Source: an uncultured delta proteobacterium
GTDB lineage: Bacteria > Desulfobacterota > Binatia > Binatales > Binataceae
Length of the DNA stretch: 64,000 bases
Direction of reading: 5' to 3'
NCBI GenBank assembly: GCA_963765675.1
Contig: CAVXXK010000006.1
Coordinates: forward strand, 128,001 to 192,000
Shown: positions 49,074-50,714 of the stretch, one piece after another
How the letters are laid out: each line of letters opens with the position of its first letter
Numbering within the stretch: position 1 is the stretch's first letter
The notes under the pieces: generated by a model
What the model saw: only the letters and a program-made list of their open reading frames with translations
What the model was told of the DNA's origin: nothing
Databases searched by the model: none
Made by a program: the position numbers and the translations under genes

Positions 49074-50714
49074 CTATTCAACGTCTGCGATCACCAGCGG
49101 CGGCAGATGTAGATAGGTAATTGACGCCGATCGTCCGAGCTCGGAGGTCGCCATCGCGATCGCCTCGTCGAGCGTGTCGGCGGAATCCCATCCCAGGCGC
49201 GCCGCGACTTCGGGCTGTTCGCATCCGGCGGAGATCACGCGCCCGACATGCTGGCGCGCGGGTTCGCCCCAATACCACATGTAGAACGGATGCACGCCAT
49301 GGTAGGCGTGGCCGTAGCGGTACATATGAGTATAGGTAGGATTATGCGCGAACTCGCGCTCGAAATTCTTTTCCAGCTCGACGGAGTCGGTCGTCTCGGC
49401 GAGGCATCGATGGTAAAACTCGATGTAGCTCGGATGATGCTCCGGATGAAATTCGTCGCGCAGCGGATGGCAAATAATCATCGTGCCGCCCGGCCGCACC
49501 AGCGGCTTATTCCGGTACATGTTGAACAGGTAGCCCATCCCGGTGCATTGCACGAGAATGGGATTCATGATCGAGTTGACATTGTAAGGACAGATAAACG
49601 GGACGCCGACAATTAGTATGTCGGCCTGTCCCTTGACCGGGACTGCGTATTGCTGGAAGACCCGCGCGAGCGCTTTTTCGTGCACCGCGTCGGTATTGCC
49701 GGCCCATACTCCCGTCATCCCGTATGGCGAGCGGTAGTTGTGCAGGACGGTGCGCCGCAGCTCGTTGGACATGTTGCGCATCGTCCAGCGAAAGGCGTTG
49801 GTGCGCGTGCGATCCCAGTCACTGAACTGGTCTTCGTTCTTGTGCAGAAAATCCATCATCCCGCCGTACATGTGAGTATTGACGGCGGTCTCGACCGTGA
49901 AGACGTTCAGGTTATCATTGACTATTGCGCCCATCCGGTTTGCCGAGCGATGCAGGCCCGAATGCTTCGGATCCATGTACGAATGAGAATCACGCAGCGT
50001 CGCGGGGTTATGATGATGCCGCAGGCTCTGGTACGGCGCGAGGCCGACGGCGACCGACTTGTGCCCGCCGTCCATCGGAACCAGATTGATATTTACGTAG
50101 AGTAGCAAGTCCGATTCGGCGGCACGCTTCGAGAGCCAAACTTCCTCGCCATGATCGGTCTTCCCGAGCATCGTGATTTCGGCGCGGTTCTCGCCGTCGA
50201 AATTGTACAGGCGGTCGGGCCAGAACTGCTTGAACGCACGCTCGCCGACGACGCGGCGAATCTCGGCTTCGGTCATCCGACGATGCAGCGCCGTGGCGAT
50301 AATGATGTGCACGTCGTCGACGCCGTAATCCGCCAGCGTCTGAAGCATCTGGTTCAGCACGCGCTCGCGGATATCGGGCGCGCGCATCTGCGGGAGCGGC
50401 AGGCTGATGTCGTCGATCGCGATCGTGACGCGCATGTTCGGATTTAGCTGTGCGAACAGAGGGTCGGCGTTCTCGGGACGCAATAGAGCGTAGCGGATGG
50501 CCTGGTCGGGATCGGGCAGCTCTTCGAGCGGCGGCGGCGGATAGATGACGCGGGTGCCGATCGGCAGCTTTTCGTACAGGAATTCTTCGCCGTACGCGAT
50601 CAGGCGGCGCTCGGAGCGGCGGTTGACGGTGACCACCAGGTCGCGGCGCGCGCCGACGTCGTGCTTGAGCTCGGCGGGCTTGAGCTCTTTGAGCTTGGCC
50701 TCAGGACGCGCCAT
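49074..50714 (-). CDS. Lactate racemase (LarA)-like domain protein
   Basis: VTIAIDDISLP, IIIATALHRRMT..EI, LGKT..GEEV, DGGHKS..GLA, KGQADILIVG, LVRPGGTMII. Confidence 0.75.
   Translation of the reverse strand: MARPEAKLKELKPAELKHDVGARRDLVVTVNRRSERRLIAYGEEFLYEKLPIGTRVIYPPPPLEELPDPDQAIRYALLRPENADPLFAQLNPNMRVTIAIDDISLPLPQMRAPDIRERVLNQMLQTLADYGVDDVHIIIATALHRRMTEAEIRRVVGERAFKQFWPDRLYNFDGENRAEITMLGKTDHGEEVWLSKRAAESDLLLYVNINLVPMDGGHKSVAVGLAPYQSLRHHHNPATLRDSHSYMDPKHSGLHRSANRMGAIVNDNLNVFTVETAVNTHMYGGMMDFLHKNEDQFSDWDRTRTNAFRWTMRNMSNELRRTVLHNYRSPYGMTGVWAGNTDAVHEKALARVFQQYAVPVKGQADILIVGVPFICPYNVNSIMNPILVQCTGMGYLFNMYRNKPLVRPGGTMIICHPLRDEFHPEHHPSYIEFYHRCLAETTDSVELEKNFEREFAHNPTYTHMYRYGHAYHGVHPFYMWYWGEPARQHVGRVISAGCEQPEVAARLGWDSADTLDEAIAMATSELGRSASITYLHLPPLVIADVE

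Follow-up and report, generated by a model that had tools for sequence, protein, structure and literature searches.

Aerobic bacteria make alkyl ether lipids and plasmalogens mainly by the route that depends on ElbD, homologues of which serve as genomic markers of ether-lipid producers in soils, sponges and sediments. One aerobic enzyme that makes a glycerol ether bond is well understood, namely AGPS, which has FAD as its cofactor and is redox-neutral on balance; the AGPS of Myxococcus xanthus is MXAN_1676. The elb operon of M. xanthus consists of elbA and elbE, both for members of the NAD-dependent epimerase family, elbB for a HAD-like phosphohydrolase, elbD for a multidomain enzyme, and elbC, which the available text of PMC9131029 (2022) and PMC13012113 (2026) leaves without an assigned function. 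The LarAH14/15/16 groups of lactate racemase (LarA) homologues were defined by Desguin et al. in 2020 (PMC7583248). Here we describe a gene that joins these two lines, located at positions 49074-50714 on the minus strand of a 64,000-nucleotide stretch of DNA from an uncultured member of the Binataceae (the window), whose product, P0001, is an orthologue of ElbC. We conclude that P0001 is probably an enzyme of the Elb pathway that depends on the nickel-pincer nucleotide (NPN). Beyond that we propose, with something just short of an even chance of being right, that it performs a hidden-redox step on a lipidic glycerol-phosphate intermediate, a proposal for which we infer cofactor loading, substrate and reaction.

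The gene is an open frame with an ATG start and a product of 546 amino acids. Lar_N, the N-terminal domain of lactate racemase, is the sole Pfam match in P0001 (E 8.9e-34), and the NCBIfam model NF052592, entitled 'NPN-dependent hydroxyacid isomerase, LarAH14/15/16 family', covers residues 27-546 at 833 bits against a cut-off of 740. This similarity is far beyond chance, and by it P0001 is classified as a member of the LarA superfamily and of its LarAH14/15/16 group. The 120 best relatives listed go in the databases by the names 'lactate racemase', 'nickel-dependent lactate racemase', 'lactate racemase domain-containing protein', 'Lactate racemase N-terminal domain', 'DUF2088 domain-containing protein', 'hypothetical protein' and, in one case, 'transcriptional regulator'; none of these 120 names refers to Elb or to ether lipids. 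Full-length relatives in genomes G102 and G179 score 310-524 bits on NF052592, well below its cut-off, and may be a sister subgroup whose gene context differs.

A preliminary description of the window, made by eye from the letters and their translations, had pointed to three LarA-like motifs, and all three are indeed kept: they stand in the translation as ATALHR (residues 140-145, with H144), GGHKS (216-220, with K219) and RHHHN (232-236, with H233-H235), and their residues align to LarA. The residue map was obtained by aligning a profile of a 44-sequence family alignment (A1) to PDB sequences; numbers for LarA of L. plantarum are chain indices in that alignment, and the roles of residues in the homologue LarA_Sp follow PMC12611868 (sections 2.4 and 2.5). 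The equivalences are as follows.

D102 of P0001: Asp72 of LarA (L. plantarum) and Asp73 of LarA_Sp; putative NPN ribose binding
H144 of P0001: His108 of LarA and His115 of LarA_Sp; putative catalytic base
K219 of P0001: Lys184 of LarA and Lys195 of LarA_Sp, also Lys183; putative thioamide tether of NPN
H235 of P0001 (K219+16): His200 of LarA and His211 of LarA_Sp; putative nickel ligand

Conservation was counted in 126 non-identical family sequences from 137 usable loci, and D101, D102, H144, K219 and H235 are invariant in all 126; the four invariant LarA cofactor residues span at least eight phyla. P0001 most likely holds NPN by a covalent bond to K219, and H235 most likely supplies the fourth ligand to nickel. 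The C-terminal domain likewise has invariant residues in Y377, R466, H472 and H475, which are equivalent to Tyr307, Arg392, His398 and His401 of LarA_Sp, and of these Tyr307 and His401 adjoin the unidentified ligand of LarA_Sp (PMC12611868, section 2.4). The position of His306 of LarA_Sp is taken in the 126 sequences by an invariant proline. As a detail of numbering, the nickel-ligand histidine of LarA_Sp is named His211 in section 2.4 and in a figure legend of PMC12611868 but His221 in section 2.5, which also gives His223 for the homologue LarA_Bw; the chain indices instead fit His211 and His213, that is, Lys+16.

The preliminary description had further held that the segment of the second catalytic histidine is replaced by INLVPMDGG (residues 209-217), and the family as a whole agrees with this. 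The column of His174 of LarA holds N210 in P0001 and Asn in 123 of the 126 sequences, and none of the 126 has a histidine within the loop 203-217; the exact equivalent of His174 is uncertain, because LarA and LarA_Sp have one residue more in this loop. The missing histidine agrees with section 2.1 of PMC12611868, where groups 14 and 15 of Desguin et al. 2020 are listed as having no His174 equivalent. In the column of Arg75 of LarA (Lys76 in LarA_Sp), a residue which in LarA binds both the NPN phosphate and the substrate carboxylate, P0001 has L105, and the 126 sequences have Leu (104), Val (13) or Met (9). With a single acid/base histidine the two-base racemisation mechanism of LarA is ruled out. 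Could P0001 all the same be a conventional LarA-type 2-hydroxy-acid racemase or epimerase, working for example on 2-hydroxy fatty acids that are then activated by ElbD? The family name given by NCBIfam speaks of a hydroxyacid isomerase, and all LarA homologues characterised so far, as far as the available text of PMC7583248 and PMC11770544 goes, use 2-hydroxy acids. We nevertheless consider such an activity quite improbable, as the second catalytic histidine needed for two-base racemisation is absent from every one of the 126 sequences, the equivalent of the carboxylate-binding Arg75 is hydrophobic, and the family member LarAH14 was without activity on seven 2-hydroxy acids (PMC7583248, Table 1). 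Desguin et al. suggested that enzymes with a single histidine may work on just one enantiomer and pass its hydride on to another place (PMC7583248, Discussion).

An AlphaFold2 model of P0001, built from A1 and containing no cofactor, has a mean pLDDT of 91.7 and a pTM of 0.90, with disorder confined to residues 1-21. The best match to this model in a Foldseek search of the PDB is 9q3k_A (E 2.1e-34, TMt 0.84), followed by several chains of 9q3j and then by 9eia/9eid, 5huq, 6c1w, 2yjg, 6d6z/7s91 and 4nar. Each of the best 17 rows listed (ranks 1-19 with gaps) is a chain of the LarA family, with E-values from 2e-34 to 4e-16, and the first match after the LarA-family chains is unrelated (E 1.7e-3). 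The comparison of a predicted structure with LarA that the preliminary description had asked for thus came out in favour of its assignment, with LarA chains at the top of the list, and according to the model P0001 adopts the two-domain LarA fold and is nearest to the single-histidine LarA homologues 9Q3K/9Q3J. Some 50 profile positions (254-306, corresponding to residues ~281-333 of P0001 and to window positions ~49716-49874) are without counterpart in the LarA_Sp and LarA_Bw chains. They are modelled as three short helices (residues 285-291, 299-313 and 317-325) and may constitute a family-specific lid or substrate-binding element.

But what ties this LarA homologue to ether lipids? The myxobacterial gene order was taken from local tblastn at the elb locus of M. 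xanthus strain AM003 (locus L157) and reads as follows.

6999-7976: elbA-like gene
8001-8732: HAD gene
8746-10356: LarA homologue
10374-14609: ElbD gene
14828-15802: elbE-like gene

The same row of five genes is found in Myxococcus sp. Y35, M. eversor, M. vastator, Corallococcus coralloides, Cystobacter fuscus, Archangium gephyra and Corallococcus terminator. The LarA homologue of AM003 scores 848.8 bits on NF052592, which is over the cut-off, and aligns to P0001 with 54% identity, gap-free, across 520 residues. In the window, the genes around P0001 form the following row.

51496-52146, minus strand: TetR-family regulator, head of the gene row
50701-51489, minus strand: ElbB-like HAD-IB hydrolase of 262 amino acids with a DxDGT motif (Pfam HAD E 1.6e-29; TIGR01490 116.6 bits, cut-off 98.3)
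49074-50714, minus strand: LarA homologue (ElbC-like) of 546 amino acids (NF052592, Pfam Lar_N and fold)
44653-49056, minus strand: ElbD-like multidomain enzyme of 1467 amino acids (NAD_binding_4, Sterile, AMP-binding, PP-binding and Acyltransferase)
~43811-44656, minus strand: secreted-looking protein like Zn-phospholipase C or S1-P1 nuclease (weak Pfam matches under the cut-offs)
43215-43748, minus strand: dual-specificity-phosphatase-like protein (Pfam DSPc E 1.1e-14)
42444-43196, minus strand: CDP-alcohol phosphatidyltransferase, for phospholipid head-group attachment (PF01066 E 2.1e-7, 31.9 bits, cut-off 22)

The ElbD-like protein combines a fatty-acyl reductase (FAR; NAD_binding_4 plus Sterile, the Sterile domain at 27.4 bits and thus below its cut-off of 35.4), an AMP-binding acyl synthetase, a phosphopantetheine carrier and a PlsC-type acyltransferase. 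This is the domain set published for ElbD of M. xanthus (PMC9131029), and identity to the M. xanthus elbD region amounts to 35-46%, depending on the domain. The HAD gene ends 14 nt inside the gene of the LarA homologue, 17 nt separate the latter from the ElbD-like gene, and the stop of the ElbD-like gene (44653-44656) overlaps the likely GTG start of the gene for the Zn-phospholipase-C/S1-P1-like protein as GTGA; the two overlaps suggest translational coupling along the row. The preliminary description was therefore right to speak of a lipid operon, with a HAD-IB hydrolase upstream of P0001 and a protein of FAR, AMP-binding, acyl carrier and acyltransferase domains downstream. The order HAD gene, LarA homologue, ElbD gene, which is the same in the window and in M. 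xanthus, marks P0001 as the Binataceae orthologue of ElbC. The earlier suggestion of an orthologue of some uncharacterised myxobacterial elb gene can be narrowed to elbC accordingly, given this order, the identity of 54% and the fact that the protein is the sole Lar_N match in each genome. ElbC is so equated with MXAN_1529, a number deduced from the order elbA = MXAN_1531 to elbE = MXAN_1527 and seen in strain AM003 rather than by a DK1622 tag.

Gene neighbourhoods were compared at 128 distinct loci, which are the best matches of two queries and not a random sample. No gene accompanies the LarA homologue more constantly in this set than the HAD gene, with a HAD homologue in 112 of the 128 loci and a FAR-domain homologue in 94. 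Where at least 1 kb of upstream sequence was present, HAD was found in 102 of 110 loci, directly upstream in 69; where at least 5 kb of downstream sequence was present, a FAR match was found in 74 of 93, and in 56 it started no more than 300 nt away on the same strand. The TetR regulator occurs in 19 of the 20 close (Binataceae) loci and in none of the 108 distant ones. Loci from Dehalococcoidia and Actinomycetota (L069 and L086) carry reductase, acyltransferase and HAD as separate genes beside the LarA homologue, and a Bryobacterales locus holds HAD, LarA homologue, NAD-epimerase and diacylglycerol kinase. An apparent fusion of HAD and LarA homologue in a 1302-residue open frame at locus L029 was rejected: the HAD match and the LarA match do not share a reading frame, and the long frame is thus a stop-free stretch of high GC content.

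Co-inheritance of ElbC and ElbD was followed in a sample of 101 Myxococcota genomes, in which ElbC was called by NF052592 over its cut-off and an ElbD-type protein by P0002 at E <= 1e-100. The ElbC-type model was over cut-off in 43 genomes and an ElbD-type protein was found in 44; 42 genomes have both, one (G096) has ElbC only, two have ElbD only and 56 have neither. In both ElbD-only genomes, G067 and G073, the ElbC gene is split or interrupted by a stop, which may reflect assembly errors or real decay; the interrupted gene of G067 lies directly upstream of ElbD. By spacings taken by hand from the match coordinates, 17 of the 42 pairs lie within 10 kb, five are on one contig at distances of 98-869 kb, and 20 are on different contigs. 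That elbB-elbC can be unlinked from elbD-elbE has been described (PMC9131029). The joint occurrence in 42 of 101 genomes, unlinked pairs included, therefore means that evolution keeps ElbC and ElbD together whether or not the two genes adjoin.

The bond to the HAD gene on the one hand and to ElbD on the other bears on the main rival view of the substrate. Here, too, P0001 would belong to the Elb pathway and depend on NPN, but together with its HAD-IB partner it would act on a small phosphorylated compound in solution, a polyol or a sugar, and not at the ether bond; it might, for example, supply or salvage the glycerol backbone or a precursor of the head group. HAD is the tightest neighbour of the LarA homologue and is present in all 14 loci that are without a FAR/ElbD match, and the gene row of the window includes a CDP-alcohol phosphatidyltransferase and a second phosphatase. 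The genes of LarA_Sp and LarA_Bw, the closest relatives of solved structure, moreover have glycolytic genes around them, and a phosphorylated sugar is the suspected ligand of these two proteins (PMC12611868, section 2.6); P0001 has the equivalents of Tyr307, His401 and Arg392 of LarA_Sp. We nonetheless hold a soluble substrate to be somewhat unlikely, for the near one-to-one coupling with ElbD, even when unlinked, points to a role specific to this pathway and not to general metabolism, and the invariant proline at the position of His306 of LarA_Sp indicates that the active sites differ.

An NPN-dependent enzyme calls for the genes of NPN biosynthesis, and in the genome to which the window belongs (4.5 Mb, 95.6% complete) they are scattered on another contig: larC (210.9 bits, cut-off 90), larE (329.9 bits, cut-off 150) and larB (288.5 bits, cut-off 175). 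P0001 is the sole Lar_N match of this genome. The same three genes are over cut-off in all five myxobacteria selected by name, M. xanthus AM003, Myxococcus sp. Y35, C. coralloides KYC2213, Cystobacter fuscus Cbf 10 and Archangium gephyra SDU49, and larB and larC are adjacent in AM003. Each of the five has exactly one Lar_N match, which by its coordinates lies within the elb locus in the four complete chromosomes; in AM003 it lies on a contig for which coordinates were not cross-checked with the elb locus. LarC is matched in all 43 ElbC-positive Myxococcota genomes (42 over cut-off, one cut by a contig end) as compared with 33 of the 58 others. Among 101 Acidobacteriota genomes an ElbC-type gene is over cut-off in seven, six of which have LarC; LarB and LarE were found in four of the five tested.

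How might such an enzyme contribute to the synthesis of ether lipids? In the mechanism that we propose, P0001 would act in the ElbD ether-lipid pathway beside the ElbB-like HAD phosphatase. H144 would deprotonate the secondary hydroxyl of a lipid of the glycerol-phosphate type, most plausibly the C2-OH of 1-acyl-glycerol-3-phosphate, and the hydride would be parked on C4 of NPN. The resulting transient 2-keto intermediate, which would resemble dihydroxyacetone phosphate (DHAP), could enable an exchange of acyl for alkyl or a neighbouring step, with a fatty alcohol or aldehyde from the reductase domain of ElbD as the exchange partner. The hydride would then return to the same face, making the step redox-neutral and a single acid/base histidine sufficient, and the HAD phosphatase would subsequently act on the phosphorylated product. 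A role of ElbC in ether-bond formation is, we infer, plausible, and the step resembling that of AGPS, a cryptic redox or exchange reaction, which the preliminary description suggested stands as a hypothesis. It was correctly noted at the outset that the way in which the Elb route forms the ether is not well resolved, as it is described so in PMC9131029. That ElbC is itself the ether-forming catalyst is doubtful. Rather unlikely, too, is the boldest version of the idea, in which ElbC would be a nickel-pincer 'hydride-borrowing' ether synthase that does the work of AGPS and alkyl-DHAP reductase in one redox-neutral active site; such an enzyme would transiently oxidise the C2 hydroxyl of an acyl-glycerol-phosphate, or else the fatty alcohol itself, form the alkyl ether by exchange or condensation and then give the hydride back.

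Several observations weigh against P0001 being an NPN-dependent enzyme that acts on an ether-lipid intermediate. An elbB insertion in M. xanthus lowered ether lipids less than did mutation of elbD and was partly rescued by elbD alone, for which the authors invoke polarity (PMC9131029). If this insertion also silenced elbC, then ElbC would not be absolutely required, and ElbB and ElbC may not be strictly required for ether lipids. The only LarAH14/15/16 relative that is named as assayed in the available text of PMC7583248, LarAH14 from Frankia, was soluble and still inactive in all seven 2-hydroxyacid assays (Table 1). With respect to gene content, 14 loci that extend at least 5 kb to both sides have HAD but no FAR/ElbD match, and the operon of M. 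xanthus has elbA/elbE-type NAD-dependent epimerase genes, whereas none was found among the 16 window open reading frames scanned (~39.7-57.7 kb). For the active site, the residue equivalences rest on sequence alignment and not on a cofactor-bound structure, and since the equivalent of Arg75 is hydrophobic (L105) the binding of cofactor and substrate must differ in detail from that in LarA. Finally, the Fisher's exact value for co-occurrence of ElbC and ElbD in the 101 Myxococcota genomes is 8e-25, a figure that overstates independence because the sampled genomes are related.

The distribution of the lar genes adds to these points. LarC is found in 76 of the 101 Myxococcota and in 74 of the 101 Acidobacteriota genomes regardless of ElbC, so that its co-occurrence with ElbC is by itself weak evidence of little test power, and we rejected it as a decisive test, with LarC in about three quarters of the genomes sampled from either phylum. 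LarA-type matches of any kind are fewer than those of LarC (62 of 101 Myxococcota and 41 of 101 Acidobacteriota genomes), and 14 Myxococcota genomes are LarC-positive without a LarA-type match. NPN-dependent enzymes with other folds have recently been discovered (PMC13524815). The 14 genomes fit such enzymes, and a sole LarA homologue thus need not be the sole NPN user; in Myxococcota and Acidobacteriota there are probably many users of NPN, of other folds, that have yet to be recognised. A further objection comes from the acidobacterial genome G002 (4.6 Mb, one contig of 4.5 Mb; it holds locus L133), in which an intact ElbC-type gene with all conserved residues and a second LarA homologue are present and no larB, larC or larE was detected. 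Cofactor scavenging, a missing piece of the genome or an NPN-independent function could explain this case. The expectation of the preliminary description that genomes with this gene carry larB, larC and larE therefore holds for the genome of the window and for the five named myxobacteria, and fails in G002.

G002 would be in keeping with P0001 and its relatives working without NPN, as a scaffold, as a binding subunit of ElbD or as an enzyme with another cofactor, the conserved lysine and histidines serving some other purpose; the loss of the equivalent of Arg75, which in LarA binds the NPN phosphate, would also suit this explanation. It is, however, very improbable in the light of the invariance of four LarA cofactor residues across at least eight phyla, of the LarC match in 43 of 43 ElbC-positive Myxococcota genomes, and of P0001/ElbC being the one LarA homologue of genomes in which larB, larC and larE are all kept. 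Dependence on NPN within the Elb pathway hence remains the reading that we prefer.

Three further open reading frames lie in or near the gene row. At its end, at 40681-42588 on the minus strand, lies a frame of 635 amino acids with only a C-terminal match to DUF7064 (E 4.6e-6), whose true start is probably later, because as listed it overlaps the frame of the CDP-alcohol phosphatidyltransferase by ~145 nt. The frame at 53577-55349 (minus strand) encodes 590 amino acids with a probable signal or lipobox-like N-terminus, two Pro/Thr-rich linkers and, in its C-terminal half, a PQQ-like/BamB-like beta-propeller (Pfam PQQ_2, E 8.7e-19). An aldo-keto reductase is encoded at 55776-56843 on the plus strand, 5 kb from the operon (Pfam E 9.7e-87). 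It was considered as an NPN-dependent user of larBCE and discarded, its closest PDB relatives being the canonical aldo-keto reductases 8hwn (DepB, E 3.8e-89), 7utf and 4xk2; no NphT entry is among the 60 PDB matches listed for it, a judgement made by PDB similarity and not by the His/Lys motif.

Both the LarA homology of P0001 and the absence of a second catalytic histidine have been recorded before, in publications and in annotation. We found no literature that equates ElbC with LarAH14-16 or links LarAH14/15/16 to Elb genes, bearing in mind that the supplements of PMC7583248, which may list HAD or acyl-CoA-synthetase COGs, and the original elb paper of 2014 may hold hints; nor did we find any on the co-inheritance of ElbC and ElbD or on the finding that M. 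xanthus, which keeps larBCE, has ElbC as its one LarA homologue. The available text of a sponge preprint of 2026 treats elbB-elbE only as core genes. Regarding ElbC as a single-histidine nickel-pincer enzyme provides the Elb route with a concrete candidate for a catalyst and its cofactor, predicts that ether-lipid synthesis requires nickel and larBCE, and gives the orphan LarAH14-16 family, with thousands of proteins and no known substrate, a physiological context. Bacterial ether-lipid synthesis may thus depend on nickel. Should ElbC turn out to be a hydride-borrowing ether synthase, it would be the first NPN enzyme to act on a lipid, and aerobic synthesis of ether lipids and plasmalogens in Myxococcota, Acidobacteriota, Binatota and others would be nickel-dependent.

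How, then, does P0001 compare with the systems described so far? With ElbC of the M. xanthus elbABCDE operon it shares the position between the HAD gene elbB and elbD and the gap-free identity given above; the gene row of the window differs by the absence of epimerase genes and by the addition of a TetR regulator, two phosphatase/phospholipase-like genes and the CDP-alcohol phosphatidyltransferase. Within the LarAH14/15/16 group it is a direct member by the curated score, belongs to the same sequence class and is likewise missing the equivalent of His174. LarA_Sp and LarA_Bw (PDB 9Q2U, 9Q3K and 9Q3J; PMC12611868) are its best matches in sequence and fold (profile E 3.9e-55, TMt 0.83-0.85), are long two-domain forms of ~500-550 amino acids as well, and have in common with P0001 the catalytic histidine, the tether lysine, the nickel histidine at Lys+16, the ribose aspartate and the equivalents of Tyr307 and His401. 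Identity to them in the structural alignment is, however, 18-21%, their position of His174 is a conserved Asn in a loop one residue longer than that of P0001, Lys76 and His306 of LarA_Sp are replaced by Leu and Pro, and their gene context is glycolytic or carbohydrate where that of P0001 is lipid. LarA of L. plantarum (PDB 5HUQ and 6C1W) has the same fold (TMt 0.78), its positions Asp72, His108, Lys184 and His200 are kept, and the genome of either protein carries lar biosynthesis genes. In contrast to this enzyme, P0001 has no equivalent of His174 or Arg75, is ~120 residues longer and has a C-terminal domain that aligns weakly in sequence. The analogy with AGPS is functional only, as AGPS uses FAD, in a FAD-binding fold of the PCMH type, and the predicted cofactor of P0001 is NPN; P0001 gives no Pfam match to FAD_binding_4 or FAD-oxidase_C and its strong fold matches are all LarA, so that the two proteins are unrelated. 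NphT and the NPN-dependent aldo-keto reductases, in turn, use the cofactor predicted for P0001 on an unrelated TIM-barrel fold, and they extend NPN chemistry beyond the racemisation of 2-hydroxy acids to hydride shuttling on other alcohols (PMC13524815).

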